Part shown: in pieces, positions 23,312 to 64,000 of the stretch
Layout: each line of letters opens with the position of its first letter
How positions within the stretch are numbered: the stretch's first letter is position 1
Assembly (NCBI GenBank): GCA_977018835.1
Contig: OZ361257.1
Coordinates: 2,418,001-2,482,000 of the forward strand
Reading direction: 5' to 3'
Source of the DNA: Minutocellus sp. GHC0000111
Lineage: Eukaryota
Length of the DNA stretch: 64,000 nucleotides
Program-made: the position numbers and the translations under genes
The notes under the pieces: generated by a model
Told to the model about the DNA's origin: nothing
What the model saw: only the letters and a program-made list of their open reading frames with translations
The model's database searches: none

Positions 23312-24448
23312 ACTTGAAGACTTTGTTGAACATGGCGATGTGGGTGTCGATGATGGGTCCCCCGTCGTGCTGCTTCTCGAGCTGCTTCTCTAATTCCTCC
23401 TTCTGAGTCTCGTTGAATTTCAAGCAGCGATCGGTGATGCTGTGTCGATGATTTGGCGGATGGTGACTGGCTGGAAACCGAGCATGTCATCTTCGAGATG
23501 ATTGATGTAGACGGCGTCGATCGAGTCGAGGAGGAGATTCTTGAGCGCCGTGTTGACTTGCTCGTGCAAGTTGCAGTGGCCCCCTTTTCGACGTGCAACA
23601 TTGTCTCCCCGGACGTTGCACGATCGCGTTGGTCTAGATTGGCCACGGCGGGAATGGTGGGGCTGGAGCCAGGATTTGCCGGAGGCACATGTGGTCGGCC
23701 GTTACTTTTGGTGGTGTGTTCGGCATCGCTGACGACGAGGCCCAAATGGCCGAGGTTGTGGTCATGTTGCACCCTGCTGGAACACGCTGGCCGCCGCTTG
23801 CTTGTTGAAGCTCCTTGAGCGCTTTGGCAACACGCTCGCGTTGGGGAGGTTGTCCTGGGTCATTCATACGTGTGATTAACTTGGTGGGGAGAATCGGCGC
23901 TGCGCCGAGAGGTTGGCCAAAAACTGCGTCGGGATTCATGCTGGTGTTTCAGTCAGCGAAGACAGAGGCAGCACGGCGGTGTTGCTGCTGCGAGACGTGT
24001 GATCGACAGAAGGCTCGATCCAGAGAAGTGTGATCGATTGGATGGGTCGATCTGGTCAGGACTTTCGGGGAAGGGATTGGATCGTCGTTCCAATATTGTC
24101 GAAAGAAACTGTCGTTTTGGCCGATTGAAGATGTGTCGGTTTTTCTTGCGTGACGAGTGAGAACCCAAGACAAACCGGGGAGAGAGGTGCGAACCGAAAT
24201 GGGGCGAGCACGGGTGGAAAAGATGTGTCACGTAGGTCTGCTAAGAGGTCCTAAAGCTAAGCTAGATAGATATAGCTTGTAGAGGTTAATGGGACCTACG
24301 CAGATGAAAAATGGGCCATCGGAGATGTCGTTGGCCCATGATCGTTGGCCCATGGATCAACGGTCAGGAGAGGGCACTGAGTCAGTGGTCTGATCACCGT
24401 ACGTACCGTACGTACGTATACGTACGTACGTAACCCACGGCATCAACG
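23312..24448 (-). mobile_element. Truncated Ty1/Copia (CoDi-like) copy: 5' LTR 24239-24448, leader and 5' part of gag
   Basis: 23313-24038 aligns with 63303-64000; LTR aligns with 58196-58390. Confidence 0.95.
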
Positions 24449-24449
24449 A

Positions 24450-25050
24450 CCCTGGCTTGAACCGCGACCCTGCTCATGCGGGCTTCTGGTTACAGGCAAC
24501 GCCAGACGCTTAAAAACGATTTTCTCTCTCCTGGTCCTCAACTATCCGTAGAGCATCGTTCCCAACATCGTCTTTGTTCCTGTTCTCCCACTCGATCTGA
24601 AGAGCAGCATTGCAGCAATTGTGGCTAGCTTCTTTTTTGTGCAAAAAAGAGAGGCAAACACACACATGCACCTGCATGAAACAGATGAACAGCATGCAAA
24701 TAAATCGATGCATGTTCGAACTCACAACAATGGACGACTCGGCGCTGATCGCTTTGATCCATTTCCACACCCAATGTCGAAATGTCTTCTCGTCAGGACG
24801 ACTTGGATTGCGGACCTTTTGTCACACACACACATGTCGGATTCGGTCCCATGTGTTTTGAGAAACATGATCGCCCAAAGCATGTGTTCTGGACGTGACT
24901 TCGGCACATCGGCAGCACACCGATCCCAAATGTCGGACATCACTTGAGGGGGCGCAGTGCCATGCGATTGCCGCCATCGTCTCCACTGCTGCTCGGGGTC
25001 GGTCGGTCGGCGGATGCAGAGAGAGAGCGACACTTGCGACCGAGCACTTC
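24450..25050 (-). pseudogene. Harbinger/DDE_Tnp_4-like transposase remnant
   Basis: HMLWAIMFLKTHGTE, PDEKTFRHWVWKWIKAI, IEWENR..DVGND pieces; catalytic core missing. Confidence 0.7.
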
Positions 25051-25618
25051 ATTGCCCCATTGCCACCACGCCTCTGGAGGGAAGAGCGCAGTGGCCGTGG
25101 ATTTGGCATGACCATGTGGCTGTCGTCCTGGCTCGCTCCTCCTTGCTCCTCTTTCCTAGCTCGCTTCTTGCCATCTTGGCCGTCTTTGCCCCGCCTGGGA
25201 GCAACATCGACAAATCGCAATCACGAATGAGCAACCCGGAAAGTGAGTCGCCAAACAAGCCCACGAGCAAGGCCCACGAGCAAGACCGAAGCAAAGTGAC
25301 GCCATTGGCACGCCAAGCCAACGTGCACCCATTCAAACGCCCCCCAAGACCCCAACGCCCAGAATTATCGCCAATGAGTCCCCCGGGGCTCATCGGCGAA
25401 TCGTCACGACTTGAGCGCAGATGCATCGCACCCCAAGTAAAAGCATGCGATGTGGATGATGCCACAATCCAAAGATGCCAGATCAGCAGCTTAAGAGGGC
25501 GCTGTCCATAATTTTCCCCGTTTTTAATCCCCCTTATTCTTATTTCTTATGACGAGCGAAGCATGACAAAAACTCGACCCCACCATGAGAATCGCCGCTC
25601 TGCCCCCTCTTCATTACG

Positions 25619-26848
25619 ATGAAGCGCAGCGCTGATAATAGTGCCGGCCCGGCCCACAACGCAGATACCCGGTCGCGGAAACTCAAGACAGATAACTCCG
25701 GTCGCCCGATTTTGCCTGTTGACAAGAAGAAAGAGAAGGCGGAGGACAAAGCGAAAGACGCCGTTACCGAGATACTGGAGGGCCTCGCCGTCACGTTGGA
25801 GAACGACCCGAACGGACAAGGACGAGAATTATGGAACAATCCCGGCGTCGGCCATGCACTTCAACATCTTGTCAAAGCAGTCGAGGCTCGCGCTGATAAG
25901 TATCATGTTCGGGATGATATTGATGTCGCTGCTGAGCGGCCCGGCCTCGTAGTTACCAACCTGTCCGTGGCTGATGTGAAGTTGAGGCTGACGGTCGGCA
26001 TCGTCGATCAATTGCAAGATCCCATGTTTGACGCCGGACCTGAATTCTTCCCTATATTTCAACTTCATGGGAAACGGATCGATATTGGATCGGCTCTTGC
26101 TGCGCACGGCCGACCTTTCAACACCACATCGCTTACTTTGCTTGATGGAAGCGGAAAGCTTATCGTCGCTCGTGTTGCCCTGACAATTACCGAAAAGGAC
26201 CGAAGTCTACAACAGGGCCATGTGATCAAATTGACAAAGTTCCACCGATGGCATGTGGCTCCATATGATGACATACACTCTACTGCTGGGATTGGACTAG
26301 TTGATTTTGATATTGTTGGAATGGGCCAACTTCTGCAGGTAGATGGTGGGCCATCAGCAGCGATCAGATCGGACACGGATGCTCTTGTTGCGGCCGTTTG
26401 TGAGGAAGCCGACGATGATCCGACGGCAGCGTCGGAGGCAGACACATTCGGTAATTGGGACGAGACCAGAGAGAGGCCGCCAATACCCCCTGCTTGCTGC
26501 ACTGCCGCCAACCGAAGCTGCTCAATGTACGGCACACTCTTCTTTCAGAAATGCGTCTGCGAAGAAATGCTGGTGCCGACGGAGGAGGACCTGGAGGATA
26601 TCGCTGACAAATACTACGCAACCACCATGCCAGTCGAAGCCATGGCAAATAATTTCAAGAGGAACATGCTGTATTGGTACTATGCAACTGAGGTGTATCA
26701 TGTGAGAGGTTGGCTTGATCGGAAGCCCTTGCCAACCTGTCTAGTCTTTTGCATTAGGTTAATTTATCCAAATGATAAAGGTGAACGATATGTTGGATTC
26801 ATCCCTGGTCATCAAGATGAAGAGGAAGAAGAAGAGGAAAATGCATAA
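25619..26848 (+). CDS. Kolobok accessory protein (KolX-like) with a putative OB-fold
   Basis: C-terminal RKPLPTCLVFCIRLIYP...G.RYVGF resembles the KolX / P2X7-ballast motif; intact 409-aa ORF within the TIRs. Confidence 0.75.
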   Translation: MKRSADNSAGPAHNADTRSRKLKTDNSGRPILPVDKKKEKAEDKAKDAVTEILEGLAVTLENDPNGQGRELWNNPGVGHALQHLVKAVEARADKYHVRDDIDVAAERPGLVVTNLSVADVKLRLTVGIVDQLQDPMFDAGPEFFPIFQLHGKRIDIGSALAAHGRPFNTTSLTLLDGSGKLIVARVALTITEKDRSLQQGHVIKLTKFHRWHVAPYDDIHSTAGIGLVDFDIVGMGQLLQVDGGPSAAIRSDTDALVAAVCEEADDDPTAASEADTFGNWDETRERPPIPPACCTAANRSCSMYGTLFFQKCVCEEMLVPTEEDLEDIADKYYATTMPVEAMANNFKRNMLYWYYATEVYHVRGWLDRKPLPTCLVFCIRLIYPNDKGERYVGFIPGHQDEEEEEEENA

Positions 26849-26952
26849 TCATTACCTCAACACATGTAGATAACAAGAATGTGCGTAGCACATGAGTAAC
26901 AGCACACAATAAATCCATTTTTATTTACAGTGATAAAATATTTTACACGTGT

Positions 26953-29267
26953 TTACAAGCTGCCATTTTCTCTCAGTATCGCCGGCATCCAAGAGCTAAC
27001 ATCATTTGCCGATACACCGAAGTTTGTCTTAGCTTTCTTATTATTTCTTGCAGATTTCTTGTTGCTGCCTGGGCTTCTGCGCTTCTTTCCGGCGTAAACG
27101 ACAACGTCGTCAGCATCGTCGCATTGACATTCAGCCCGAGTGTGGCCAAGCTGCTTGCATTTCTGACACTGCTGGTCAATCTTCTTCTTGCGGCCAGGCT
27201 TTGCTGGTTTCGCCTTACCAGCAGCTAGGGCCCTGTTCTTCTTGTACACATAGTCCTTGTCGTCTTTCTCGCTTCTGTTTCGCAAGGCTGCTCGAAGGCG
27301 CTTGCTGTCGCTCTTGCTCTTTTTGTACTCATCGGTGCGCTTACGCGCAAGGTCGCCCTCGAGCTTCCGGTCAATTGCATCGAATCCATCTTTTCGGGTA
27401 GGAGAATCCCTCGATCCCAACTTTCCAAGAACTCGCTCATTGAATTCCGTACCCAGTGACTTGTGGCCAGCGGCTCTACTTGTTGCATTTGGGTAGGCGT
27501 CTGAAGCAGTCAAATTCGGCCTTTTCCCCATCGTGAACTTCGTCACCATCCCGTTGAGCTGTTCCGACGCCGGTGGTAGATTCCTTCTTGCAGTTGGAGT
27601 CGGCAGCATTCTTGTTGATTCTCTTGGTTATTTCAAGCGTCATCTTGCGAATCGTGTCGTCACTAATCTCCAATATGTCGCCATCGAATTGATTCCCCGA
27701 GCTCCATTCCTCATCGAGCTTGCCATCACTCCAATCAGGATGAGCAATGCTGAGGCGAATCCAATCACACGTGTTGGTGGTGCAAAAAGTGTGAATGCCA
27801 CATTGGTGACGAACGACGGACTGGAGTTCTTTCTGAAGGAGGGCCAGATGACTTTGTTTTTCCTCCTCGGACACAGCACCATCGGGCTGATCGAGAACGC
27901 TGTGCTTGTACCGATCAGTAATCTTCGAAATGTCCTGTTTCATCCGATTGATGCGTGGTCGGGGGATGGCATAAAAATTTTCAACTCCCAACATTCTCGG
28001 CCAGATGCTCCTCTGCCACACCGGGGGAGTGGGAAGAGTTGCGATAGCAGAAGCCATCATGGTCGTACAGGGCCAGCATCTCATCCTTGCTCATGTTTTT
28101 GAGCTCACTCGGCGTTATTGGATTGCCGGCTTCCCGCCTCTCCCTCAATCTTGCATTGCAGGCTCTCACGCAATGGTGGCAGCTTGCCTGAGAGATTCCC
28201 TTGTCAACAACAAGGCCAGTTTCCTTGTCTACGGCAAATACCGCTGCAGCAGAGCCAGTGTAGCAATGGCCGTAGTCGCGTTTGAGGGCGCTGCCGTCTT
28301 GGGCCACCGTAACCACCGCCGCCGTGTGCATCTCGCCGCCTTGTTCAAACTCAACAGTCTTGCTGCTAGCGGCATGTGCTTTTGCCCTATTCTCGTCAAT
28401 GATTTCATCAGCTGCTTCAACAGCCGCTGCTCTGCATTTCTTTTCCACCTGTCGGGCATTCTTTTCGGTCGGATGGACGATGTCGGCCTTCGTGCAGAAA
28501 TTCATGAAGCGACTTGCGCACATGGCCTCATCTTCCGCTGCCTCCATCAGCTCCAAGCTCATTCCAGCCTGACTTCTAGAATGCTTTCTGCCGGGGCACA
28601 CAACTTCTGACCTCTGGCCGATCCAAGTGCAAAAAGAAAAAGGTTGGTTGCATCTATCGCATCGCCATTCAAATGTAACGCCGAATCCACGCCGAACTGG
28701 CTCGGCCGAGAGATGCAGATTGCCGCACGATCGGTGGAGACTCTGCACGAAATCACACAGCTGCTTCATCTCAACCACAATTCTTTTGCCGTTGAGCTGC
28801 ACGCCGGTGATGTTGGGACGATCGGCAGCGTTGGCGGTGGGAGTAGATGACCGACCGCCCGAAGAATTCTTGTCGGAATAATGTTTCAGCATCGCGTTGA
28901 GATGGGGCCCATGCTTTTCATCGTCCTGGAAGTAATTTTCAGGCATGGTCGGCAGTGATCGCTTGCCATTGCGTTGAGAGCGTGGGCTGGCGTTATCGGC
29001 TATTCTGGAGAAGCGGTAGAAGGGCTTTGCAACGTCAAGGCCTGATATTTTCTCTGGACGTCGTCGTTGGATGTTGACCTCGTGTCGTGTTGGGACGTGT
29101 TGAAGAGATGATCGAACAAGAGAGATCTCTAAGCTCGGCGACACGCCACCGCGCATCAAGATGCGGACAAGCTCATCAATAGTGTAGTAAGTACATCTGA
29201 CGTCGTCTGGGAATGAGAGCAAGAGTGAGAGGATTGCCTCCTTGGCGTTAGCACGTGATGTTTCCAT
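26953..29267 (-). pseudogene. Kolobok DDE transposase, frameshifted and internally deleted
   Basis: VTVAQDGSALKR...TGLVVD...CHHC, CYRN...AEE, SEQLN, C-terminal CQKCKQLGHTRAEC knuckle; three frames, second Asp region absent. Confidence 0.8.
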
Positions 29268-29736
29268 GGTTGTTTTTTTGTTTTGTGTCGGTTCTGGCGC
29301 AAGACACGCTTTTCGATGAGAACCTTACAAAAAGAACCCCAAATGAGGGAGACGTGCAAAAACACCCCAAACAAATATCCCCTTACCTCCCAACAGCAAA
29401 ACTTCAAGATATCTTCCCACCAGCACCACCAATGCTGGTTGTGCGTCGGCCGAGACTAATTTCGGTCGATCCGACAATGATGTGTGCGTCGACTGTTGCA
29501 TTTCTGAGGGAGAAATGATTCATCGAAGTTCCTCTGAACCAAGTGTTCCTGGAGGGATTTCCGACTTAATGCTGAAAGGAACGTCGATGACTCTTCGCCA
29601 CTGTGGAGAGCGGCGGCCTTCGATGAGGAGCCCATTGTCACGTTGGAGTGCTAACTTTGGCGATGGTGCGAAGAAAAAACGGCACAAAACACGCATTTTG
29701 GGGGCTTCCTAAAAGTTATGGACAGCGCCCTCTTAA

Positions 29737-30820
29737 GCCAGGGGAGGCGGACTACGAGAAGTTGAAAGCCACCGCTGCCTTATTGACATCACAGGGCACA
29801 ATCACTGGTACCGAGAGTCCTTTTCCTTCGAAAACAGTCTACGAAAAGGCTGGGCTTCCGATCAACCCTCCCAACGCCGACGGATACAAACCTGCGGCTC
29901 TTCGTGCCGCGATGACTCAAAGAATTCTTCCAGAACTTATAACGCCGAGAGGAGAACCCGAGCAACAAGAACAAGAGGCCGACGGCGACGCTGTGGGCCG
30001 TACATCGGCAACTCCTCGAGTCGATAGGAAGCCTGCTGCCAATGCAACACCCCCAGCTGCTGCAGCTGCACCTGCTACTGGCAACACGCAAGGCTCGCCC
30101 AACCAAACCGAGAACTGGACCGTTGATTCTAGCAGCACAATAATGCCGAAGAAGATTACCGAGTTCCTCCGGGAGGAGTGGGATATTTACACCGATGAAA
30201 GGGGCTGGAAGCTAATGAGGCTTTTTTATCATCCTGTGGAAGGTTGCGATCCTGAGGACGTGAAGTGGACCATCGAGACAGATGACTCGGGCGCCAACCG
30301 AATTCTGCGAATGACATGGACGAGGCCAAAGATTTCGTTCTGGTTCCAAGCAAAGGGTCTCTTCCGAATTTTCTTTGATCTCAATGATAATCAGGAGCCT
30401 CCTATCACCAGCGCTATGAAATTCTCGTTTCAATTCGATCCTAAACAAGAAGAATGATAGACCCAAGGATTTTTTTGTTGAGGTCGAGGAGTGGCTCCTC
30501 CCCTTCGAAGTTGAGCGCATCCTTCATTCTCTCCTCTTCAGGACCATGGCATTGGAGAAAATGATATCTACGCCATTGATGAGAACACGAACGAAGGGTA
30601 TTTCCTTGTTACCATGGTTGTTGATCGCGGAACATTTCATGAAATGGAAACAAGGAAGAAGAACACTTTTGGCAGACGCTGGCGTGATGACAACAGCACC
30701 TATTGTGGCGGTAGCGACGGCGGCAATAATGGTAATAATTGCAATGGAAATGGGCTGCCTTTGTCCACCCTCAAAATTCAACAGCCTCTATGTCGGATGC
30801 TTGATTTGAGTAAAGATTGA
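29737..30820 (+). pseudogene. Accessory ORF of the outer element, interrupted by the Kolobok
   Basis: Removing the Kolobok and one TTAA joins 25475-25494 to this region as MPDQQLKPGEADYEKLK; reading frame breaks near 30457. Confidence 0.5.
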
Positions 30821-31300
30821 ACAGAGGACATGCTATGTTATTTGGATTCATGGAGAACTGGAGATAGGAATGTGGTAGGTGTACTGGTACTACTATCAGC
30901 ATTTGTGCACGTAAATTAAATTACTATTTGATCGTATCTCGCACATATCGTCTTGTAACAAATATTTGTGCAGATGCACCGGCATAATGTCGGTGATTCT
31001 TACGTGTAATGTAAGTGTAATTTACGCATCAATTTACGCATCAAATTTGCGTAAAATTTACGTCGACTCGGCGTCAAATTGATGTTTCCTTGACGTATAC
31101 TTTACGTAAATTTTACGCAAAATTGGTGTCTCTTTTACGTCAAGGCGAAACATGTCTGCGAGGTCGAAAAACACAAAATGTTGCGTGGGACTCCCAAAAC
31201 ACACCTTTTCGCCAAATTCCCGCAAGCTCCAGCGGCCTGTCCGTCGCCACTTCCCTGCCGCCGCAGCAACCGCACACTCAAAACGTCACGACGAACAACA

Positions 31301-32527
31301 ATGGAGACCGCTCTACTTTTGGTGGAGGCCATCCCTCAGAAGTTGGACGCCATCGTCCAATTGGTCCGCAATGGTCTGTGCTGCGTCAAGGACTTGCAAG
31401 TCGGACCGGGCTATCTCCACGATCCGGCCGTCACGGCCAAGTACTACCGCTTCCCGGAACCCCTCGATCAGACGACGCCCCTCGAGATTGCCATCTGCCT
31501 CTGCCAATTCTTTGCCTTTGTCAGCGTCAGCAAGAGCGGTTATGGCCTCATGACCAAGAGTGGTTGGTTCAAGCTGAAACGCGTGCAGCGTCTCATCGAG
31601 AAGCGTGGTGCGAGCAGTGCCGGGAAGGATGCTGCTGTCACCTCCTCGGAGGATGTCGTCAATCGCATCATTGATGAAAGCCTGGAGAAGGAACGTGCCG
31701 ATGCCAATCGTTGCATCTTTGTCGGAGCCAACGTTTTGGCTATTGGCCTCAGCTTCTTTTGGCTGGTGTGCAACTCTCTGCATATTACGCAGACGAATTG
31801 GGTGGGAGGACTTCCAGCTCTTATCCATGCTCTAACGGTAATGGAGATTGCCTTGGCACCACTGCTGTATTACATGCTCAAGGATGGAGCCGCCCACCTG
31901 GTCCGATCGGCCAGTATTCTGAAGTTCCGCACCAATCTCAGTCAGGCGCTCGATGACAAGAAGAAGACTGCAGCTGAGCAGTTGTTGGGATACGAAACAT
32001 ACTGCTGGATCCGAGAGGGTGGATGGTCTCCATTCTGGGAGAAGCCCGCCACCAGCCCCCGTGCTGGGAAGAAGGCGCAGATGGAAGAGGATGCTGCCCT
32101 GGATCGCGAGATCAAGCAGGTCCGCGCCTTCGTGGAAGGCCTTACCCACGGCGATCGCAGAACGACGTCCGTCAAGGCCTTTGTTGCGGAAGCCAAGGAC
32201 GCATGCGAAGAGGACGGACGACTCGATGAGCTTTCCGTGGAAACTCGGTGGCATGGATACTTGGAGTACATTTACTTCGTCCTAAACTTTATTGCCTTCT
32301 ATGGGTACATGCTGGGCATCCTAACGTACTACTTTGACGATGATTATCTCGAGGGAACTTACACCGGATCATTGCGATTGGGATACAACAATGCCAGTGC
32401 CGATTGGGGTGGAAACTTTGCAGGAGACGCAATGTGGACTGTCGAACCGGTCTTCATCCTCTCGACGCCGATGCTGCTTGGTTGGGTCAAGCCCAAGAAG
32501 GCCGCCGAGAAGGCTAAGCAAGAATAA
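31301..32527 (+). CDS. Hypothetical multi-pass membrane protein
   Basis: Long ORF with coding-like codon usage and several TM segments. Confidence 0.8.
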   Translation: METALLLVEAIPQKLDAIVQLVRNGLCCVKDLQVGPGYLHDPAVTAKYYRFPEPLDQTTPLEIAICLCQFFAFVSVSKSGYGLMTKSGWFKLKRVQRLIEKRGASSAGKDAAVTSSEDVVNRIIDESLEKERADANRCIFVGANVLAIGLSFFWLVCNSLHITQTNWVGGLPALIHALTVMEIALAPLLYYMLKDGAAHLVRSASILKFRTNLSQALDDKKKTAAEQLLGYETYCWIREGGWSPFWEKPATSPRAGKKAQMEEDAALDREIKQVRAFVEGLTHGDRRTTSVKAFVAEAKDACEEDGRLDELSVETRWHGYLEYIYFVLNFIAFYGYMLGILTYYFDDDYLEGTYTGSLRLGYNNASADWGGNFAGDAMWTVEPVFILSTPMLLGWVKPKKAAEKAKQE

Positions 32528-32759
32528 AAGTAATATGTGTACATCCAAGATTTGTTGCTGACAAAGGAGGCAGGATCGTGACTTGCATCATTCATTACGT
32601 GTACTGACTGGTGCACTGTGCAGCACACTGGGAGAAGCTGCTTGTCTTGTCCAACAGTCCGGGCGTCTCTTGGTTCCACGTGTAAAATCGCTCGTACGCA
32701 TGAGCGAGCCGGGAGATCGCGCGCGACCACTCTCTCTTTACAAGACGTAGCGACAACCA

Positions 32760-34627: not shown

Positions 34628-34818
34628 ACTCTAGTTTGTCATAAGGTATGGTATAAGCGTGTGGTGGATTTGGTCTCAAGAAAATGGCGAATCGGATCGC
34701 GTCCTCAGGCGAAATTTCCTGATATAATTTACAGTATGCGAGCTAGCTACAAGCGAAATATATGCTGCTATGTAATAGACATTGAAACATTATTTTGCGA
34801 TATCCTTTCTTCGCTTCT

Positions 34819-37303: not shown

Positions 37304-37384
37304 AGTTACGTAGATATTTGCGACGCTATTTATCTGCGATCTAAATTCAAAGCCTTCTCTACTGTATTTCTATAATTACTCCAG

Positions 37385-51819: not shown

Positions 51820-53430
51820 CTACAAAGCGACCAATCCAGACTTCTTCGGACGGACATCCTCCTCATCCTCCCTGCTGCCGGTACTTCCTCTGGCCACAGA
51901 AGCGTCGCCCCCGGCGACGTTCGTAGCCTCTTCTGCGACGGCCTCTGCATGATTCGCCGTCGTATTTTCCCCAGCGTCATTGTGTTCTAGACCAGTGGCA
52001 GCAAGAATGTTTGCCAAGTCGTCTACGTCCGCGTCCTCCGCCACCAAAGCCTCGAGCTCCTGCTCCGCCTCCTCTTCATTGATCTCACCCACTCCACTGG
52101 CAACACCTGCATCAATGATCATTTTGGTGACCTCATTGCTCTCCTCGGTTAGATTGGCCATTTCGTCCATCAGTTCCTTGATGTCTTCGGGGTGGAGCCC
52201 CTTCCCTCCCTCCTCCTCGCTCTTGTGGGCCATATTCATAGCATCCCTGGCTAACTTGAAGGCCTGGATCACGTCGGCGTCGGCTCTGGTGCGCTCCAGC
52301 GCATGAAGCTGTTTTTCCACATTCAACAAACTTGCCGAGGTCCGATCAATCTCATCCTTGCACATTTTGCGCCGTTTGAGGTGCACCAAGCAGAGATTCT
52401 TCTGACCCTCCTTCTTGGCCAATACGGCGCGGGCTCCGCAGACACCGGCCTTTTCCGACAGGCGCTCAATACGACGCTCCAGTGCCGTTGAAGACGCTCT
52501 CAACTTGAATATTCCCACGTCGACTTTGTCCACGGCAACTGCGGTGTGCTTCGGAAGGAGCTCCACGATGTCGCCATCGTCACTCAGTTTGGCACGCCCA
52601 GCGACCAGCATGGTCCGGAGCAACAGGTCCAGACCATCCTGCGGCAATCTGGAAAGCGTTTCGCACAGCGCCGTGTCCTCGGCGGAGTTTTTGCCCGATG
52701 CCGCCAATGATGCCGAGGCCGCAAGACGACAAAATTCGGCCAAGGTATGCGGGCCGTCCCCAGTGCAATATAGCAAAGTGGCTTGCCCGTCGGACTCTGC
52801 GGCGGCATGATCCAATATCAGACGGATGCATTCCACCATCAGCCTGCCGTTTTGGACGGAGAGGTGGTGGTTGGCAGTACAGTCGCCCCGTCTCTCCGAC
52901 GATCTGTTCTTCATTCCGCCCCCCAAGTCATCGTCAAAAATGAAGGAGAAGAGCGTCTTCGCCACCGTCCCGGCGAGCTCCAACACGGCAGTGCGGCCAG
53001 GGACGCGGGTGCCAGCAACCGTACTAGTACCGGTCCGTCTCACTCTCCCCGCCAGCATCCCCGCGGCCGCCTCCAGCTGCTCGTTCGACGGCATCCCCTC
53101 GATGGCACCGGTACCGTCCGCAGCCCCAGAACGCCCCAGCCTGCGAGGAACAAGTGCGAAGAGGCAGTGCTGATCGGAACCACTGCCGGCGGGACTGGCC
53201 ACGCTCCCGTCGTGTTCGATAAACATCGTCTTCCGCAGCAGAGAAGCTCGGAGGGCACGCATCTCCCTATCGATATCGGCACGCCCGCCGAAATTGTTGT
53301 CACCCGACAGGGCCTCGGAAACGGTGGCCGCCAGACTCCTGGATCGCAGGCAGACGCTGCGGTGGAGTGCACCGGCGTCCACCGGAGCTGCCGTGCCCGG
53401 CGATCGTCCTTCCCGCCCGGTGTTGCTCAT
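51820..53430 (-). CDS. CHMP7: CHMP7-like ESCRT-III protein
   Basis: C-terminal Snf7 domain (HLKRRK..., VIQAFK, DIKELMDEM, EEAEQELEAL) after a long N-terminal region. Confidence 0.75.
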   Translation of the reverse strand: MSNTGREGRSPGTAAPVDAGALHRSVCLRSRSLAATVSEALSGDNNFGGRADIDREMRALRASLLRKTMFIEHDGSVASPAGSGSDQHCLFALVPRRLGRSGAADGTGAIEGMPSNEQLEAAAGMLAGRVRRTGTSTVAGTRVPGRTAVLELAGTVAKTLFSFIFDDDLGGGMKNRSSERRGDCTANHHLSVQNGRLMVECIRLILDHAAAESDGQATLLYCTGDGPHTLAEFCRLAASASLAASGKNSAEDTALCETLSRLPQDGLDLLLRTMLVAGRAKLSDDGDIVELLPKHTAVAVDKVDVGIFKLRASSTALERRIERLSEKAGVCGARAVLAKKEGQKNLCLVHLKRRKMCKDEIDRTSASLLNVEKQLHALERTRADADVIQAFKLARDAMNMAHKSEEEGGKGLHPEDIKELMDEMANLTEESNEVTKMIIDAGVASGVGEINEEEAEQELEALVAEDADVDDLANILAATGLEHNDAGENTTANHAEAVAEEATNVAGGDASVARGSTGSREDEEDVRPKKSGLVAL

Positions 53431-53500
53431 ACTTGACTCTGTGATACTACGTAGTAGGATCCTATTTCTCGGCAGAAGAGATGGGCCCGGGTGCCCTCTA

Positions 53501-56379
53501 CGAGGTCCGGGACAGCAATTTCGGGGACCCGGTTTTTTGGGTCTTTGGACTTTCCGACACGGCGGTTTGCGCGCACCTTGAAAAACACGCGGCAAAGCAA
53601 GCAAATCAAAACACATCCGTCAACAACCGACCTCCAAGCAATTACCACAAATAGACTGGGCAACTTCTGCCGACTGGCGCTTCAAGAAGCTTCCATACTC
53701 ATGGATACTCCAAAGGGACACATCTTCAGTCCACCGCGTCCACCGAAACGCGCCGAGGCGACTGCATTCAGCCCCTCGCGCCATGAGAAGGAAACTTCCA
53801 ACGAAACGCCGGAACATCCGCGGTATCGAGAGAACAAGGACAACGATGACGAGGAGGACAACCAAGGGGTCCCACCGGCATCGTCAGACCTCACATCTCC
53901 TCGTGTGTTGAAATATCGACGCGAGTACAACGAAGAGGATGGCTTCGCCGCCGAATGAAGGCCGAAGCAATTTTGCAGTTAGGCATGCTATCGTAAACGT
54001 CCTCGGCAGTGTCCCAGATCTGGTCGGTGGAAATGACGGAGGTGCCTACCATTTTTCGTGCCCATTCCGAGTGCCGCCGGCTCATCGCGGGGAACACGCT
54101 CAAGTCAAGGACGTTGGCGTGAGGCATCTGCGGTGCCTGTGGCTGCCACGTCCAGCCTTGCTCAGCACAGAAGTTAGTAACAAATTGCGTGAAGGTTCCG
54201 TCCTCGTGAGGCCCGGCCTGGTCGCCCTGGATAATAACATGGCAATCTTCGTATTGCTTGCCCGGACCGACAAGGTTGAGAATCGCTGGGAAAATAGTCT
54301 CCTTGATTACGAGGAGCAAAGAGCATTTCGGATCCTTTTTGGTGCCTTCGTTCGATCCAGTAACGCAACAATCAACAAGAAACGACTCTCCTTTCCGGCG
54401 AAGAGGTTCCTTTGGTGTCCCATCGGGGTTGGTATTTGGGTGCCGTATTGAACCATCAGGCTGTGATGCTGCTTCGTACTGAGCTCGCTCCGCTATTTTA
54501 GGAGCTTGAGCTCGTACCAGTGGCAGTTTTACAACCTCGCACCCACTCTCAAGAGAACCGTCAAAGACAGCGGCAACAAATGCAATGGCCATGACCTTGT
54601 TGATGTGGCTCCTGTGAAAGGCCGCGTAATCTCGCTTTTTCACGCCGATTTCCTCGCAAGCCTTCGCAAAAGCTCGGAGGACGAGACCCCAGAACCATTT
54701 CTCATCGTAATGCACGAGGAGAACTCGCTTCTTTCCATTCGGTAAATTGCCGTCCGTTTGCGCCTGTCCTTGGCAATTGAATCGGTATTGAGGCCGAGTG
54801 GGATCGGGGTGATGGCCTTGAGAGGCACATTCTTATGCATCATGCCACCAAAAGGCTTCTCACACTGGACATCGCAAAGAGTACCTCCACCGACACCTCG
54901 ACTGACCATAACAAATCCCTTACCCTCAGGCCGATTCATGTTGGGACTGAAGTCGGCAGACACAAGGACATATTCCCCAGTACTGATGGCAGGTCGCATG
55001 TTATCTTCCATTCTCATTGCTTTCTTGCGTTCGGGTGGTGCATCCGTCGGCATCCTGTGCGACCGAAGATGTTCACGCATTTGCACCCTCTGCTCCAAAT
55101 GACGCATCGCCTCCTTCATTTTGTTCCTTTTCTTCTCGGCATCGGCCATGGCCTTTTCATCCTTCCGCTTTTCTCGTTTCAAGGTATCCCTTAGCCCTTT
55201 CAAAGCCTCCTCTGCAGCTTTGTATTGTGCTTCGGCCTCAACCAGCAGCACATCCAAATTCTCCTCGGTCGATCCACCAGAATTGGCGGTGCCGGTAGCA
55301 GAAACACCGACACTGGCAGGATTGCCAGATTCTTCACTGTTGCCGCTTCCATCCACCACCATGGACTCGGTGATGCCCCCAGCTTCGATATTATCATCAC
55401 CAGGACGAGCAGCGATACCAGCATTGTCCTCGACAGTCGGCTCAGGGCTGGCATCGGCGTTATTGGATGACGAATTGCGCCGAGCAATTTGAATTTGAGA
55501 AATCGGCACATCTTGTGCCGGATCAGGACCGGTCTGGCTCGGACAGCACAGCTCCTCCTCTCGGGCTTGCTCCATAACATCCTGCTGTTTCTGAAGTGAG
55601 AGGCCCGCCCATGCCCGGTTCGCTATGGTCTGGATCATCCCAGGAGACTTGCCACGAATCGTAGAGGCATCGATGGTGCCGCTCCGATGGACAAAATAAT
55701 CAAAGCATGGGATGGAGCTGCCGGACCGACGGGAGCGGCGACATGCTGGCGCATCAGCTGCGGTGGCAGCAGTAGTAACAGCCATTTGCATTAATGTGGT
55801 GTTGGATGCAGTATTTTGTGGCAGTAGAGCAACAGTTTGTATGTCGGGTGGGTTGGAAATGAGGAAGGTTTCATTGAGTGGCGGGCGCGCCGGGCGGGTG
55901 ATGATTTTTTTGGCCAGCTCGATTTTGGCGCGGGGTCACCCGGACCGCATGAGATGCGCCATTATGGGGACCATGGAGACCGATATCGGAGCTCAAACCA
56001 TATGGCTACTTGAATCAATGCATTTGGGAGGTGGTGGTGGGGTCGGGAGGTGGAGGAGGTGACCAGTTGTCATCGGAAAAACTGGCAGAAGTCGGGAGGG
56101 GCGATGGATGGGGGGTGAATCGGCCAGACGCTGGCATGGGAAGATGAAATCGACATCTCCGAGTCGGTCCAAGGTCAAGGACCAAACCGTTCTGGAGATG
56201 CCACGCTCATCCCTTGCGTGAAGCGGATGCCGTCGGCACTGCCGTCACCGCCATCTTGAAGACAGGACGATAGCAAATAAATGCTGCTGCTTGCTGCGTG
56301 CGTTTGTGCTGATGATTTTTATGAGATTTTGCCCAAAGACCCGAAAACCGGGTCCCTGAAACTGCTGTCCGCGACCTCG
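53501..56379 (-). mobile_element. Tc1/mariner-type transposon, internally deleted, 2879 bp
   Basis: TA|CGAGGTC...GACCTCG|TA, about 48-bp imperfect TIRs; HYDEKWF, IQGDQAGPH, PQMPHANVLDL (53891-54745); upstream ORF 54640-55791 out of frame. Confidence 0.92.
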
Positions 56380-56624
56380 TAAGACAGACAGTCGTCACCG
56401 CTTGGAGGGTGGGCGCGGCCCATCTAGCAATAAGAGGGTGTGAGTTTTTTTTTTGTTGGCAATAAACTAGGTCGACGAAGAAACACATGTTCCACGCTTA
56501 TTTCCGTCGATTTTGGCGCTGCTTGCTCTCTCTCGTCGTGTTACATCGTAGAAACATCTGCTGCAAAACACAGGCGATGCCAACTTGAACGGCTGTGGCA
56601 GGCAGATCGTGTTTCAGATTTTAG

Positions 56625-58195
56625 AAAGCAAGCCAGCATTCGGAACAAAGATCTCACAAGTGAAGTGAAAGCAAGCCAGCATTCGGAACAAAGATCTCAC
56701 AAGTGGAAGCAGGTACTCCCCGTCGTGGGGAATGTTTGGATTTGACTTTTTGTATTTTAAAAGGGAGTGCTTCAGATTCAATGAGTCACGCGCCAGCACA
56801 TCAAATCGGCCTCATCAAATCCGCAGCATGTCAAAACAACCAGCATGTCAAGCCGCAGCAGCAATCAAACCGCAGCGGCACATCAAACCATACTCACCAC
56901 CCGCAGCATGTCAAAACGTTCAGCGTATCGAACCGCAGCAAATCAATTCTACCCGCATGTCATCAAATGTCAAGAAATCGACCAGCACCACATCAAAACG
57001 CCAAGCACAGACCAGCATGTCTAAAAACGTCCAGCATGTCAAGCCGCAGCAGCAATCACACCACAGCGGCAGCGGCAGCACATCAAACCTCATCAACCGC
57101 GGCAGCACATCAAAACGTCCAGCATGTCAAGCCGCAGCACTAATCAAACCGCCAGCAGCACATCAAACCTCATCAGCCGCGGCAGCACATCAGACCACCC
57201 GCAGCAAATCAAACCTCATCCACCGCGGCAGAAATCTAACCTCACCACCCGCAGCACATTAAAACGTTCAGCACATCTCACAACAGCGGCAGCTGATCAA
57301 ACCGCCAGCAGCGGCAGCGGCAGCGGCAGCACATCAAACCTCATCAACCGCGGCAGCATGTCAAAACCTCCAGCATGTCAAGCCGCAGCACTAATCAAAC
57401 CGCCAGCAGCACATCAAACCTCATCAGCCGCGGCAGCACATCAGACCACCCGCAGCATGTCAAGACGTTCAGCACATCACACTGCAAGTGCAGCACATCA
57501 AATCGTAGAAGCAGCGGCAGCGGCAGTGATCAAACTGCCAGCAGCAAATCAATCTATCCGCGCATCTTGTCACACATGTGTCACCTAAACGACCAGCATG
57601 CCAATGACAGCATTGGGCGCATTGCTTCACTGAAAGCATTCCCCACACACAAGAACATTCAGTTGTCAAAACAGCCTTTCATGTTTCCCAACCATCCTCA
57701 ATCACCTTAACAAATAAGAGTGTGAAAATAGTCCAAAGCAATGGCTCTTCCCCATGATGATTGCCACCCGAAGAAAAAAAGCTTCGTCTTTGCAGCAAAC
57801 CAAACAACAATTTTCACATCACCGCGTTCGGGACGCTGCCTGATTCGTGCATCACATGTTTAAGCACTTTTTTGGTGCCAATAGAAGTGTTTCATTAGTC
57901 TACTTTCTTTTGTTTCTCGTGCTTGCTAAGCACCTCCGACATCGGTTCCGAGTGCTTCGAACATGATTCATCACCGTCAGCGTGTCAACATTTTCAGCAT
58001 TTTTGACATGCTGCTACACCACTCCTCTATGTGAATCTTTAAATTTTTTAAACTAATTGTAACTATTCAAGAGTGCAATCGGATCGGTGCGCCGCCGCAG
58101 CAGCAGCATGTCTTCCAACAACGAACCAGCACGTCAAACGGCCAACCAGCACATCACAAAACGTCCAGCGCATCGCTTCCATTCCACAACCAAAG
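56625..58195. repeat. Degenerate short-motif repeat array (cagcacatcaaa / cagcatgtcaa / ccgcagca) with internal duplications
   Basis: About 140-bp block at about 57066-57207 repeated at about 57317-57457; about 36-bp duplication at 56628-56705. Confidence 0.85.
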
Positions 58196-58442
58196 TGCTA
58201 AGAGGTCCTAAAGCTAAGCTAGATAGATATAGCTAGTAGAGGTTAATAGGACCTACGTAGATGAAAATGGGCCATCGGAGATGTCGTTGGCCCATGGATC
58301 AACGGTCAGGAGAGGGCACTGAGTCAGTGGTCTGATCACCGTACGTACCGTACGTATGTATACGTACGTACGTATCCCACGGCATCAACACACACCCCCT
58401 CGCAGATCAATGACTAGTGCCATTGAATCTTCATGTAGAGTC

Positions 58443-61400
58443 CTAATTGGAATCTACATGTAAGTAGACTGGTCGCATGTCGACATGGTAGCGGGCGGGA
58501 TGGTGCTTTGTAAAATAATCGGCCAAATTTTGCGCTCCTTTCCGCCAGCACACCTGGAATTGTCGTTGCTCTGTGCGATCTTGGACCCAGTAGAATCTCA
58601 TGTCCACAGCCTTAGACCGTCTTTGCTTGACGGTTTTATTGGCGATTCCAGATGCTGTAGAGTTGTCAACGACGATAGCAGTAGGGGGCTGCGGGTGACC
58701 CATTTCTTCTAGTGCTGCCCGGATTGGCACTGCATCTTTCATGTTGAAAAACAATCCTCCCAATTCGGCTTCAGCGGCTGAGGACATTGCATGCTTGATG
58801 ATGTTGGCATTGACGAGGATGGCTCCATTCATTGGTGGCATGGGATCACTTGAGTCAGGCTGGCGGTGCGGGTCCTTAGGTCGGGAGCTTAGGTAGAAGC
58901 ACCCTCCGAGCTTGATTCTTGATTTCGGGGCTGACAAGTGGGAGGCGTCGCTGTGCACATGCAGGATCATGTCTGACTTGACGTGTCGAATGAATGCGTC
59001 GGGATGGGTTGCAAGGCAATCTAGAAGCTTCTTGGCATCTTGTCGAGTGCGCTCGGTAGCTTTGGATTGTTCCGCTGAGATGCTGTTGAGCGCCGGTAAA
59101 ATTGTTGAATCAGTTGCTCGACCACAGTGCAAGGAGCTGCCCACCACCTGTTGAATTTCGTTGATGCCTTTGGCGTCGAGTGGTGGTGAGTCGTCTTCCG
59201 GTTCTGGCAGCTGGGGTCCCGGGCCATGCGTCGGACGATTCCATCGACATGGCGCATGCTCGGGCCGTGAGGGGCGGTCGTGTTGGAACTTGTGGCGCAT
59301 CTCCTTGACGCAGTTAGGCACAGATAGATCCACCCAATTGGCCTCGTAGTTCCACTCGAGTTGAATGCCACAACAAAGTCGGCCTTCCCAATCGGTAGTG
59401 ATCTTATACTTGGAGTTGAGGGCCTGAATGAGATGGTCTGCATGCTCTTTCCCGACACACTTTGCTCCAAAATCGTCAACGGTTAGGCAAAAGGCAATTG
59501 GGCGGGTTTTGTGCCTCCAAAGGCCGGCAGTGCGCTTGCAAGGGAAATAGCCATGGGGTTTGAGATGCTTGACAAGTTGATCGTAGGCTAGGCGCCCTGC
59601 CTGGGGTAATCCATGCATTCCGCCATCGATTCTGACCAACACTCGACCACTCTTTACTTTGTCGTGGAGGTCGTAGGCTTCCATGACTTCGTCGGGGATG
59701 AGAGCTACTGGCGCCCACATCCATTCTGGCTCTGGCATGGTGCTATTGAGATAGAAGTCACTGATGTCAATTCCCATGAAACGAGCGTTGTCTGTAGAGA
59801 TGACGCTGTTGAAAAGTAACTTTGCAGTCAACATTTCAGCGGTCGGGGTCGAGACTGCACCAGGGTAATGAATTTTGTCGCCTCCTGCAGTCCATCGAAC
59901 TCGATTGGGATTTGGTTTATGGGAGCAATAGTCGGCGACAATGCGGAGGCATGTGGCTTTTCCCCCCGAGGCAGTTCGGACCAGTGGACGAAAGCCATTG
60001 TATTGGAGGGAATGCTAGCACTGTTTCCAACTCAAAAGTCCGTTAGCCGTCCAATTTCATCGATGTTTGCTTGAATGAATTGGTCCCTCATGTTCGTTTT
60101 GAGGAGGTCGCGGTATTCAAGCATTGCACCAGCATCGGGATGGACGACGACGTTAGCAAAGTGTTGGAGGTTTGGTAAAGGCGAGAAAGCTGCCATGTTG
60201 GCCACGTGGTGGGCACTGCGACGAGATGATGGCCGTGGGGGAGGGTTCCGATGTGGAATGCACCCTCGCTGACGGTATGATCGTCGTCGAGGTGGTTTGG
60301 CGGTCGATGGTTTGGACTTGCTTGTCGATTTTGCTGGAGCTGGTAATGTTGGAGTGGTGTCGATCGTTGGAGACTTGCGTTTACGTTGCCGACGGGAGGT
60401 GGGGGCATTGGAACTTTGATTGGATGTTACGACGGTTGCATCGTCGTCATGATTATCATCATCGTCGCCGTTGGGCTCGTCTACTGCAGCCAAAGGATTG
60501 TAGTAGTTGGAAGAAACTGACGAGCGAGGTGGCGCGTTGGATCGACGTGATCGACGGCTTTTAGTGGTGGCTGCATCATATGTGGAGGATTTTGCCACCC
60601 TCGGAGGTTGCTGGGGCTGAGGTAACGGAGCGTTGGGGTTGGGGACAAGGTGACGGCCTACTTCAGTCTCGTTCATCTCTTCTACGTCGTCTTCCTCGTA
60701 TTTGATTTTGTAGCACTTGTACTTCTTGTCAAATGCAACGACTCTACCCTTGTAATTGCGATCTCCAAACACTTTGGCGGCGATGGTACCGAGGCGGAAT
60801 CGTTGGGAGTCGTCATCGTTCTCTAGCACCCTCGGAGCTGCGGTTGTCTGCATCGTCTCATCAGAGGCGGAGGTGGCAGATTCTGCTGGGGTCACGCTGT
60901 TGAAAATCTCGGAGAGCTTTTCTAAAGCTTGACGATGCTCGTCTCGAAGGGGAGCAAGGGGTGCCGCTGGATGTGGATTCTGTAGAGCGTGCAGGAGTTC
61001 ATGAGCTGCGACTGTTGCTGCATCGGCCGACGACGTTTTGGGTACCGGAATCATTTTGGGGAGCCAGACGAGTGTGTTACCAGTGCGTTCCGCCCGAGTT
61101 TCCTCAATCCAAACCTTGTAACACCGGTAGTGTTCCATGGCTGGACCGACATAGCACCCATCAATGCCATGCGGGGACCAAGAGCCGCGTGCCGAGGGCA
61201 TCTCGTGAAAGATGACCTTGCATCCGAGGGGGCCGAGAGGCGTGCGATTGAAATCAAAGCCGCCATTGAGTTGCTCGTACGCTGATAGTCGAGGGTTGAC
61301 TCGGGATGCTCTCAGGAAATTGAGGGTCATTACCGCCTGCTCCAGCAATTTATCCCACAAGATGAGGGGAAAGTCGGGATCGGTACCACAGAGAATCGCA

Positions 61401-62623
61401 ATGAAATGATTCTTAAAGGTTCGAATGGCTCGTTCGGCCGCATTTCGGCGGTGGGAGTGCGTTGGGGTCAATTGAAAATCTACATCCTTTTCTTCCATGA
61501 ACTCCTTCAGCTCTCGACTCACTTCATTATCCAATCGTTGCAATTTTGGGCGAAATCCTCGCTTGGAGAGGCATTCGAAAATAGTTTGGTACGCTCGGCG
61601 CATTTCCGTTCCCGATCGGCTTTTCATTGGTTCGGCCAAGATGCTGTTGGAGTCACAGTCACAGACGACCATTATGTACTGGTGGCCAGAAATAGACGAT
61701 ACCAAGAAACGGCCGGGCTAATCTGAGAAGATCTGGCCCGTTATGTCATGACAATCAGCAAAGACATAGTTGGTGCGCTGTTGGTGTTGTGCCGGGTGGA
61801 GATCCTGCTCGGTTTCGTCCACCCCAGGGAGAGATTTTGGCGTAGCCATCGACCGTTTGGGCTTGGTCGACCTGATGTTCTTGCGCTGCTGGTCTAAGTG
61901 ACCTTTAATCATCGGTATCGACTGTGGCATGTGCTTACGTACAAGCTTTGATGTGAGGCCTGGCCAAGATCTATAAAATCCCGCATCGATTGCTTTGCAC
62001 CAGGTAGATAGCTGAGGACTGCCAGCGCACCAATGTAAAAAGGCTACACGTTCCGGAACCGTCTCCTGGGCAATTGCGGCGTTGGCAGCATATTGGATGA
62101 CGTTGGGGCCGGGGAGCGGCGACATGGTGGGCGAGCAATTAAGATCTACCATCCACAATTTCGTTGAGGGGTCTCGTTTACCTTGCAAAATGACGGCATT
62201 GTCCTTGGCGATGACTACCGAATCCTTATCGAAAGTGGCAATGCATCCATCGTCACACAGCTGCCCAATCGATAGGAGCGATGATGCCATGTTATTGAAA
62301 ATATAGGCCTTGCTAGCCGATGGGGAAGCCCCAGGGAGGCGAAGCGTGGCCTCGTGGGTGTTCGTCATTGTGCTATTATCCGGAAGGGTGACGCTGATAG
62401 GAATTGCTGTCTGTTGGACGTTGAAAATAGAGCCATCGCACGATAGGCATTGGGGCTTCTGGACAAAATGTCCCGTCGTTCCAGTGTCTGCGGCGAGGAC
62501 GATTGGCTCTTGAGTTGGAGGTTTGCTTTTTGACGTAAGAAAAGCTAACGAAGGCGGGGAGGAGGTGGATTCAGACATACTATCCTCTATTTTATGCTGA
62601 TTAATATCCACCGTCCCTCCCGC
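58443..62623 (-). pseudogene. pol: Copia pol with nonsense codon (TAG at 61718-20 in SD[Q]PGRF) and frameshifts at about 59840-60040
   Basis: ORF pieces 61718-62611, 60032-61705, 58443-59834. Confidence 0.92.
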
Positions 62624-63906
62624 TCAGTTACGACGCGAGCTACCACCGCAAGGATTGTACTTGGTGGCGTTATCAACGTGGTTGGGCCCTTTGCAAGTGC
62701 ATTCAAAGCTGGGGTGGTTGGACGAATAGCCGCACGTGTGGCAATAATGGCCTCTGGGGAGGATCGACTGCAGTTCCCGCTTCTCCTGGCGGTTGAGGTT
62801 AGGACCTTGGCCTGGGAAGTGGCCGGCGCCGTTCTGCTGGCCACCGCCGCAGTAGCCTCCACTGCCACCAGTATGGTTGCGTCCCTCACGCAGAACGCGG
62901 TTCTCGGCCTTGAGTGAAGCTATTTCTTGGCGAAGTTTGGCAATGGTGTCATCCTTCTCGTTGCTCTTTTTGGCGAGGTTCGCCATCATGGCTTGGTTGG
63001 TCTTGAGGGCTTCGGTGGTGTCAGCCAAAAGGAGATCGGCTCGAGAAAGAAATGGATCGTCCGAGGCCGATGAGGCCAAATTCGCGCCATGATATCCTGC
63101 CGCTTCGGTGGTGGTGTTGGCCATCTTCTTATCATGCCAATCGCGGAAGTCCGACTGCATGTTGGCCCACGTGCAATCGGCCTCCGGACTGTCGTCCCAG
63201 TCCTCGCATGCCTTCTTTGCCAATGAGAACCTGCGCACGGAGCGGTAGAACTTGGAGACCTTTTGCTTGTTGGTGAAGGGTTCGCCGGCCGTTTCAAACG
63301 CCTTGAAGACTTTGTTGAACATGGCGATGTGGGTGTCGATGGGTCCCCCGTCGCACTGCTTCTCGAGCTGCTTCTCTAATTCCTCCTTCTGAGTCTCGTT
63401 GAATTTCAAGCAGCGATCGGTAATGCTGTCGATGATTTGGCGGATGGTGACTGGCTGGAAACCGAGCATGTCATCTTCGAGATGATTGATGTAGACGGCG
63501 TCGATCGAGTCGAGGAGGAGATTCTTGAGCGCCGTGTTGACTTGCTCGTACAAGTTGTAGTGGCCCCCTTTTCGATGTAACATCCCCGGATTGCACGATC
63601 GCGTTGGTCTAGATTGGCCACGGCGGGAATGGTGGGGCTGGGGCCAGGATTTGCCGGAGGCACATGTGGTCGGCCGTTGCTTTTGGTGGTGCATTCGGCA
63701 TCGCTGACGACGAGGCCCAAATGGCCGAGGTTGTGGTCATTGTGCCCTGCTGGAATGCTGGCCGCCGCTTGTTGAAGTTCCTTGAGCGCTTTGGCAACAC
63801 GCTCGCGTTGGGGAGTTTGTCCTGGGTCATTCATGCATGTGATTAACTTGGTGGGGAGAATCGGCGCTGCGCCGAGAGGTTGGCCAAAAACTGCGTCGGG
63901 ATTCAT
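62624..63906 (-). pseudogene. gag: Copia gag, frameshift near 63570
   Basis: GHLGLVVS...P.NPG and Zn knuckle YCHTCGYSSNHPSFEC. Confidence 0.88.
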
Positions 63907-64000
63907 GCTGGTGTTTCAGTCAGCGAAGACAGGCAGCACGGCGGTGTTGCTGCGAGACGTGTGATCGACAGAAGGTTCGATCCAGAGAAGTGTGATCGAT

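Follow-up and report, generated by a model that had tools for sequence, protein, structure and literature searches.

Change of TpA to TpG and CpA in Copia and mariner copies of a diatom genome: direction, context and candidate causes

Two copies of one Copia retrotransposon lie in the 64 000 nt stretch of DNA analysed here (the window), and the initial annotation proposed that they had been altered independently at ancestral TA dinucleotides, with TG or CA as the product (a hit). The locus raises the questions of whether TA was indeed the starting state, whether the changes were made on DNA and what might have made them. The host organism is a diatom.

Copia copies and other elements of the window

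The features on which the argument draws were as follows.

14762..18196, minus strand: mariner-type DNA transposon with 28-nt TIRs and one TA hit within the left TIR
23309..24238, minus strand: Copia copy A, a 5'-part remnant (5' UTR and first ~200 gag codons) with many hits
23368..23369: gag residue 184, TG (His184), against CA (Cys) at 63354-55; ancestral Tyr
23717..23718: gag residue 72, TG (His72), against CA (Cys) at 63692-93; ancestral Tyr
23770..23771: gag residue 55, CA (Cys55), against TG (His) at 63743-44; ancestral Tyr
24239..24448, minus strand: 5' LTR of copy A, 9 RTAY sites retained, with a 14-bp tandem duplication
24450..25488: unannotated stretch adjoining LTR A, zero RTAY in 1039 bp, TA/AT 0.14
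25489..29738: TTAA-flanked TIR element with a Mutator-like transposase
53499..56381, minus strand: second TIR element, 38-nt arms with TA at each end; TA/AT 0.36 (composition only, unpolarised)
56400..58190: degenerate tandem repeat adjoining LTR B, RTAY-poor (4 RTAY, 17 YTAR)
58196..58390, minus strand: 3' LTR of Copia copy B, 10 RTAY sites retained
58446..60014, minus strand: copy B reverse transcriptase (RT)/RNase H frame (RVT_2, E 1e-4, below cut-off)
60035..62623, minus strand: copy B integrase/protease region, two frames with a stop between, and a Tudor-like domain (PF21743)
62627..63906, minus strand: copy B gag, with a frameshift near 63565; the element leaves the window at 64000

The integrase and protease labels are presumptive, being taken from position and the usual Copia order. 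The body of copy A had a TA/AT ratio of 0.17 and two RTAY sites in 925 bp, the RT frame of copy B carried Cys or His at 10 of 20 conserved Tyr columns, and the mariner copy did so at 17 of 27.

Alignment of gag from copies A and B (726 and 707 bp, respectively) gave 14 substituted sites, one gap-adjacent change being left out of the count. Nine of these sites, and 12 of the 17 substitutions, were of the TA/TG/CA type, in agreement with the earlier statement that most lie at TA; they comprised the three sites with TG in one copy and CA in the other, all present where they had been reported, and six with TA against TG or CA, at least five having been claimed. At the remaining five sites there were a CpG change, a transversion and three transitions of other kinds. 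The two TA hits cited from the LTRs were also found, among five internal substitutions, but the pair joins the 5' LTR of copy A with the 3' LTR of copy B and not, as had been supposed, the LTRs of one element.

All 10 internal gaps in the gag alignment were insertions of 2-5 bp in copy A. The hit families together had 29 private in-frame insertions and four deletions, while no indels occurred in 8192 aligned residues of the outgroup clusters; short tandem duplications were over-represented and clustered close to hit sites, and multi-base swaps were seen at 60034-37 and 63175-76.

Assembly error was rejected as the source of the substitutions because the alleles recur in sister proteins and in contigs of four sequencing runs, one of which, the best DNA run, possibly supplied the window itself; this rejection, made from contigs, covers the substitutions alone. 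Of the 40 differences listed from the contigs, 27 were of the TA/TG/CA type, in runs whose recorded type was 'DNA?' or unknown. In three of the 40 rows the window has TA, but in most runs CA or TG accounted for 88-100 % of the contig depth.

Direction, strand and sequence context

Gag residues 184, 72 and 55 were Tyr in the outgroup clusters (55-83 % identity), the exceptions being one Gln at 184 and one Gly at 55, and within the family they were mixtures of Tyr, Cys and His from which Arg was absent. The ancestor was therefore TA, as first proposed, and not CG. Across 36 sister copies and 16 Tyr columns, Y>C was found in 119 of 374 cells, Y>H in 79 and Y>R in none, giving 198/374 with Cys or His, although the cells are not independent because the copies share descent, and His is fixed in some columns. 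Per strand opportunity this corresponds to 198/748 TA changes, against 9/4012 for codon-fixed A>G and T>C outside TA. Changes in the opposite direction (H>Y and C>Y) were absent from the gag family (0/459).

The same spectrum was found in RT and in mariner. In 15 RT copies, 83 of 197 Tyr cells were Cys or His and none was Arg; by 5' base, A>G occurred at 87/577 adenines after T, 2/820 after A and 0/1169 after G. The 41 mariner rows had Cys or His in 299/529 Tyr cells, with four Arg, 16/5363 changes of A>G or T>C outside TA and no H>Y or C>Y (0/362). Cys and His occurred together in 30 of the 36 gag copies and 28 of the 41 mariner rows, which bears out the proposal that both strands are affected, and the hit load differed from copy to copy. 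It is thus nearly certain from these alignments that about half of the TA steps in Tyr codons of the transposon copies have been turned into TG or CA, on both strands. As mariner is a DNA transposon with the same signature, the process acts on chromosomal DNA, and action at the DNA level, as the initial annotation suggested, and after insertion is very probable.

Antisense hits depended on the 3' base, with 69/182 at TAY and 10/191 at TAR in gag, and 165/367 and 13/155, respectively, in mariner. These counts favour RTAY (purine 5', pyrimidine 3') as the preferred context, a motif that is self-complementary by virtue of its 5' purine. The TAC/TAT preference noted from the two Copia copies thus extends across families (gag and mariner), while site 23436 and both LTR hits fall outside RTAY. 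The LTRs, two per element, keep their RTAY sites beside depleted gag bodies; both largely escape the process.

Candidate mechanisms

The explanation that we favour, with credence and doubt in about equal parts, is that a candidate host adenine deaminase of the TadA/ADAT type converts TpA, mostly in RTAY, to TpG or CpA on silenced transposon bodies. Adenine at TpA would be deaminated to hypoxanthine and then copied as G; a single hit would remove the TA target, so that TG or CA results and CG hardly ever. Targeting would be by chromatin state or foreignness and not by copy number, nicks made now and then at the lesion would yield the duplications of 2-6 bp, and the transposons would be killed, possibly as a means of defence. 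TadA/ADAT2 deaminases and adenine base editors resemble the process in making A>G with a 5' pyrimidine and in preferring YAY to YAR, as in the accessible account of an engineered TadA-8e variant (PMC12528748), but the diatom process takes strictly T and not C on the 5' side, prefers a purine before it and appears to act naturally on chromosomes. TadA variants also edit CA (YA), and the absence of codon-fixed CA>CG in gag (H>R and Q>R, 0/788) counts against a deaminase; nor is a self-complementary hot motif obviously squared with an enzyme of single-stranded tRNA loops. The stramenopile deaminases of Iyer et al. (2011), in the part of that survey consulted, belong to a cytidine-type clade, none being tied there to this signature. 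No deaminase gene was present among the frames scanned in the window.

Since A>G after T on one strand reads as T>C before A on the other, a lesion on the thymine side would fit equally. A chromatin-targeted methyltransferase or oxygenase would turn the thymine of TpA into a base pairing with G, with an indistinguishable outcome in sequence and an equally self-complementary RTAY motif. O4-methyl-T and 5-formyl-U cause T>C; we know of no enzyme activity that modifies the T of TpA in chromatin. DNMT4, carried by 31 of 60 diatoms and possibly grouping with RID, the enzyme of fungal RIP, might serve as guide or catalyst, yet by the accessible text of the same paper it is absent from all other MMETSP species (PMC9998398), though the rhizarian Bigelowiella natans bears the same signature. 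We regard the thymine lesion as unlikely.

Error-prone gap filling of the Pol eta kind, during repair in transposon chromatin, would join A>G at TA to the duplications and swaps, and is disfavoured as somewhat less likely still. Pol eta prefers WA, with a TA hotspot on both strands (PMC7884765, accessible part), as in the A:T phase of somatic hypermutation, and the excess of insertions and the multi-base swaps are in its favour. However, AA, which is also a WA site, was barely hit (K>R and N>S, 4/1361 in gag and 8/1804 in mariner) compared with Y>C (119/374 and 121/529), and Tyr transversions were confined to 1/374 and 1/529 cells.

A genome-wide bias from TA to TG/CA, masked by selection in genes, is very improbable. 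The difference in RTAY:YTAR between transposon bodies and intergenic DNA was borderline (p = 0.085), but intergenic DNA of the host had TA/AT 0.80 and 18 RTAY/kb, against 0-8 RTAY/kb in hit elements, and dead LTRs retain RTAY next to gag bodies without it. Composition and small host-protein controls agree with a process that may be limited, within the range covered, to transposon-derived DNA: the controls were one CHMP7-like gene, Tyr-poor and beside the second TIR element, with Cys or His at 0/3 Tyr-majority columns, and one ADP/ATP carrier that kept 8 of 12 bovine Tyr, with one His (counted by eye). Spill-over from the second TIR element into the CHMP7-like gene was unsupported at those three columns.

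Editing of RNA or cDNA during retrotransposition, before insertion, has a marginally smaller chance: it could give Copia sense hits from RNA and antisense hits from minus-strand cDNA, but mariner, without an RNA intermediate, is equally hit on both strands, and non-coding flank DNA is RTAY-free. Deamination of 5mC from an ancestral CG, or RIP of the fungal type making TA, is refuted for the main signal and has next to no standing: diatom Copia is CG-methylated by DNMT5 (PMC9998398, accessible part) and CpG was hit now and then (5/831 in RT and, among Arg cells, 9/976 in mariner), but the outgroups have Tyr, Arg is missing from these gag columns (0/374), H>Y and C>Y were not found (0/459 and 0/362), and CG/GC in the elements is ~0.9. 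A UV photoproduct at TA was rejected, such products giving mainly transversions without transposon specificity.

Relation to known systems

Fungal RIP (Neurospora and others) makes dense transitions on both strands in a dinucleotide context and cripples transposons, but it changes C to T and creates TA, the opposite direction; it also senses homology and acts before meiosis in dependence on RID. C:G>T:A changes making TpA were absent from gag and mariner. Repetition itself, the trigger implied in the initial annotation, is conjectural for the diatom: multi-copy families are hit, yet the LTRs retain 9 and 10 RTAY sites, and the NCLDV target in B. natans is single-copy.

The statement in the initial annotation that no such system had been described in eukaryotes does not hold. 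In B. natans, NCLDV and virophage DNA that has integrated into the genome is hypermutated from TpA to TpG/CpA, with the same change arising de novo in mutation-accumulation lines at ~1000-fold above background; the authors propose ADAT2, and DDE and RT domains are enriched among TA-poor CDS (Mettrop et al., bioRxiv 10.64898/2026.01.13.699255, main text). As in the diatom, A>G and T>C occur only at TpA, on both strands of nuclear DNA and, in the diatom to all appearance, within parasitic or foreign sequence, varying among lineages, and the enzyme is putative. The two differ in that the former is a rhizarian with viral inserts (one NCLDV being single-copy) and the latter has polarised Copia and mariner families. 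The preprint's main text gives no flank rule, unlike the RTAY preference found here, and the indel rate that it states is obtained when its full set of 21 indels is divided by the non-hypermutable genome (our arithmetic), leaving apparently none for the hot regions, against the duplication excess in the diatom elements. This unrelated alga was the sole earlier report of the signature that we found; literature searches, which reached few subscription journals, gave none for TA-erasing hypermutation in a diatom.

A process known from the viral inserts of one rhizarian is extended here to a second SAR lineage and to its ordinary transposons, and its fingerprint can be measured: TA is the strict context, RTAY is the hot motif, LTRs are spared and duplications lie close by. 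More tentatively, and with doubt outweighing confidence, a diatom editor of adenine in double-stranded DNA may read the palindrome RTAY in silenced bodies, spare LTRs and scatter 2-6 bp duplications by nicking, as an A-to-G counterpart of RIP common to rhizarians and possibly SAR-ancestral. Diatoms are transformable and editable, so that enzyme and trigger are testable. A natural DNA adenine deaminase, if real, would interest those who develop base editors, and in diatoms the process would skew the dating of transposons, the annotation of repeats and the evolution of GC content.

A metagenome scan returned 13 loci (48-73 % identity, TA o/e 0.61-0.97), none of them sister DNA close enough for a nucleotide spectrum. 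Within the window, the left 1.5 kb of the TTAA-flanked TIR element had 12.8 RTAY/kb and appears unhit, and its right part had 4.4/kb (unpolarised).

Elements in the window and their relatives

Beside the two copies of one Copia family (A and B), the window holds three elements with terminal inverted repeats (TIRs), among them a mariner. The features concerned were as follows (R, purine; Y, pyrimidine).

18958-19138: 181-bp MITE with perfect 29-nt TIRs, TA/AT 0.88 and two RTAY sites
21164-21832, plus strand: DNA-deoxyinosine (hypoxanthine) glycosylase frame (TIGR04274, 91.6 against the NCBIfam cut-off of 80 bits)
23309-24448: Copia copy A, 5' remnant
25489-29738: TIR element flanked by TTAA, with a Mutator-like transposase (PF20700)
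51826-53430, minus strand: Snf7-domain host gene with one Tyr in 535 aa, adjoining a TIR element
58196-64000, minus strand: Copia copy B, truncated by the window end
60035-61717, minus strand: Copia integrase frame with a Tudor-like domain (PF21743, E 6e-11), possibly a chromatin-targeting module

The TTAA-flanked element, which we take to resemble Kolobok, had normal TA in its left ORF and a TA-poor right part; the Snf7-domain gene is presumably CHMP7-like. A gag relative at 57% identity was found in Arcocellulus cornucervis, and mariner relatives in Seminavis robusta and Nitzschia inconspicua. Bacillariophyta was also the most frequent phylum in the Atlas clusters matched by a host protein, so the host is a diatom.

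Erasure of TA and its direction

The TA-erasing pattern is real and well supported. In the gag pair (23313-24038 in copy A, 63303-64000 in copy B), 9 of 14 substituted sites were of TA/TG/CA type, bearing out the excess proposed in the initial annotation; its three sites with TG in one copy and CA in the other (23368-69 vs 63354-55, 23717-18 vs 63692-93 and 23770-71 vs 63743-44) were recovered, as were its two TA-type hits, among five internal substitutions, between the 5' LTR of copy A (24239-24448) and the 3' LTR of copy B (58196-58390). Copy B was also compared with contigs, assembled rather than raw reads, from four runs, the best of which is possibly the window's source. Differences were mostly transitions (124 of 135 places in run X1). 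The best-supported 40 of 164 rows comprised 27 of TA/TG/CA type, one of CpG type, five other transitions and seven transversions, and in 17 of these 40 the contig majority restored TA in at least one of two DNA-type runs.

Since two copies alone cannot separate TA from CG ancestry, proteins were used for polarity. Of 20 columns in which 70% or more of 118 homologues carry Tyr, 10 were Cys or His in the copy B reverse transcriptase (RT); the homologues themselves had Cys or His in 18 of 2232 cells (19 strictest columns). Sister copies of three families were taken from clusters on megabase ENA contigs with lengths that recur from family to family (the largest clusters, with 71 and 275 members, being represented by 15 listed members each); we infer that they belong to one assembly, probably the window's own. 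For gag, 36 of 39 copies were retained, three being excluded as frameshift artefacts, with ends and low-identity patches masked. Over 16 Tyr columns, TA had become TG (Tyr to Cys) in 119/374 cells, CA (Tyr to His) in 79/374 and CG (Tyr to Arg) in 0/374; codon-fixed A>G/T>C changes outside TA numbered 9/4012 (Met to Thr excluded because of a column with a three-state Ile ATA), and changes that create TA, the RIP direction, 0/459. The RT agreed, with 83/197 Tyr cells hit in 15 copies; A>G after C came to 22/1101 there, chiefly across codon junctions, and at these the C in the window may be the product of a hit. For mariner (41 rows, including the window copy) the corresponding Tyr counts were 121, 178 and 4 of 529, four columns being nearly all His and possibly inherited, with 16/5363 changes outside TA. 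CpG hits were rare (gag 1/584, RT 5/831, mariner 9/976). As copies are related by descent, p-values over cells overstate certainty.

The three TG/CA sites, at gag positions 184, 72 and 55, are Cys or His in the family and Tyr in outgroups except for one Gln and one Gly, upholding the ancestral TA first suggested. Gag outgroup clusters were almost unhit (2 Cys/His in 367 filled cells), although their short-contig assemblies may collapse copies.

Motif, substrate and surviving hot sites

The 3' context was taken from antisense hits in Tyr codons, where it is unbiased. TAY exceeded TAR in gag (69/182 vs 10/191) and mariner (165/367 vs 13/155), as expected from the TAC/TAT preference noted earlier. 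Sense hits in mariner favoured a 5' purine (about 110/378 vs 11/151, hand sum), a trend that was less distinct in gag. Together the two flanks give RTAY as the hot motif.

Because mariner has no RNA stage and both of its strands carry hits, chromosomal DNA is the most likely substrate, in keeping with the both-strand, DNA-level process originally proposed. Both outcomes in 30/36 gag copies, together with loads of 0/9 to 11/15 per copy, point to hits after insertion, although the copies share descent. In mariner (14790-18170) and gag (62627-63906), 5' parts look more saturated than 3' parts.

RTAY occurred at 11.2 per kb in host ORFs, 18.1 in intergenic DNA, 4.3 and 2.2 in the bodies of Copia B and A, and 1.2 in the 5' half of mariner, and was absent from the flank at 24450-25488; the RTAY:YTAR contrast between transposon bodies and intergenic DNA was borderline (p = 0.085). 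The LTRs, repeated at least as much as the bodies, retained 42 and 50 per kb. This would speak against copy number as the trigger, although most of these sites lie in a short microsatellite and may have been restored by slippage. No Tyr-to-Cys/His signal was found at conserved columns of the Snf7-domain gene, host controls being thin. The pattern is patchy among relatives, because two clusters of other diatom-type Copia RT (P0015 and P0099) carry it in 4-7 of 18-19 columns, at lower load; most of the 118 RT homologues do not.

Precedent, mechanism and associated changes

The process was initially thought undescribed in eukaryotes, but the same kind of TpA change is known from Bigelowiella natans, where 230/231 mutations in two integrated viral regions were A>G or T>C changes confined to TpA, about 1000-fold over background, and ADAT2 was proposed (Mettrop et al., bioRxiv 10.64898/2026.01.13.699255). 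Diatoms and trinucleotide context are absent from the accessible portions of that text, and literature searches found no report of TpA hypermutation in diatoms. The process has been described once before.

Our best guess, held with about even confidence, is that a TadA/ADAT-type deaminase would act on silenced transposon DNA. An engineered TadA prefers YAY over YAR (PMC12528748, in part), matching the flanks here, whereas the strict CA exclusion and palindromic motif fit it poorly. A thymine-side lesion, with the RID-related DNMT4 of diatoms (PMC9998398, in part) as a candidate, is less likely. Error-prone synthesis is more doubtful still: Pol eta has WA hotspots (PMC7884765, in part), and the near absence of hits at AA argues against it.

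All ten internal gaps of the gag pair were 2-5 bp insertions in copy A (726 bp, 23313-24038). Four are readable as doubled AT or TA in which the added TA has since changed to TG or CG; as TA>CG is almost absent elsewhere, the CG cases are out of line. Across the three families, private in-frame insertions (29, mostly tandem duplications) exceeded deletions (4), shared reference indels excluded, with none of either in 8192 aligned outgroup residues. A Tyr column stood no more than one residue away from seven of the 29, where 2.0 would be expected (p = 0.002), a proximity that weakened in wider windows (p = 0.009 and 0.035; all hot columns, three residues, p = 0.30) and that gap placement near mismatches may inflate; it offers a lead towards possible nicking at the lesion. 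Copy B alone departs from the contig majority by multi-base swaps at 60034-60037 and 63175-63176, which suggest error-prone repair.

The TIGR04274 frame is predicted to encode a glycosylase of the sort expected to remove deaminated adenine from DNA. It lies 1.5 kb from Copia copy A, probably by chance; its 5' end is ~37 bp from a divergent gene, and its closest Atlas clusters are bacterial where recorded.
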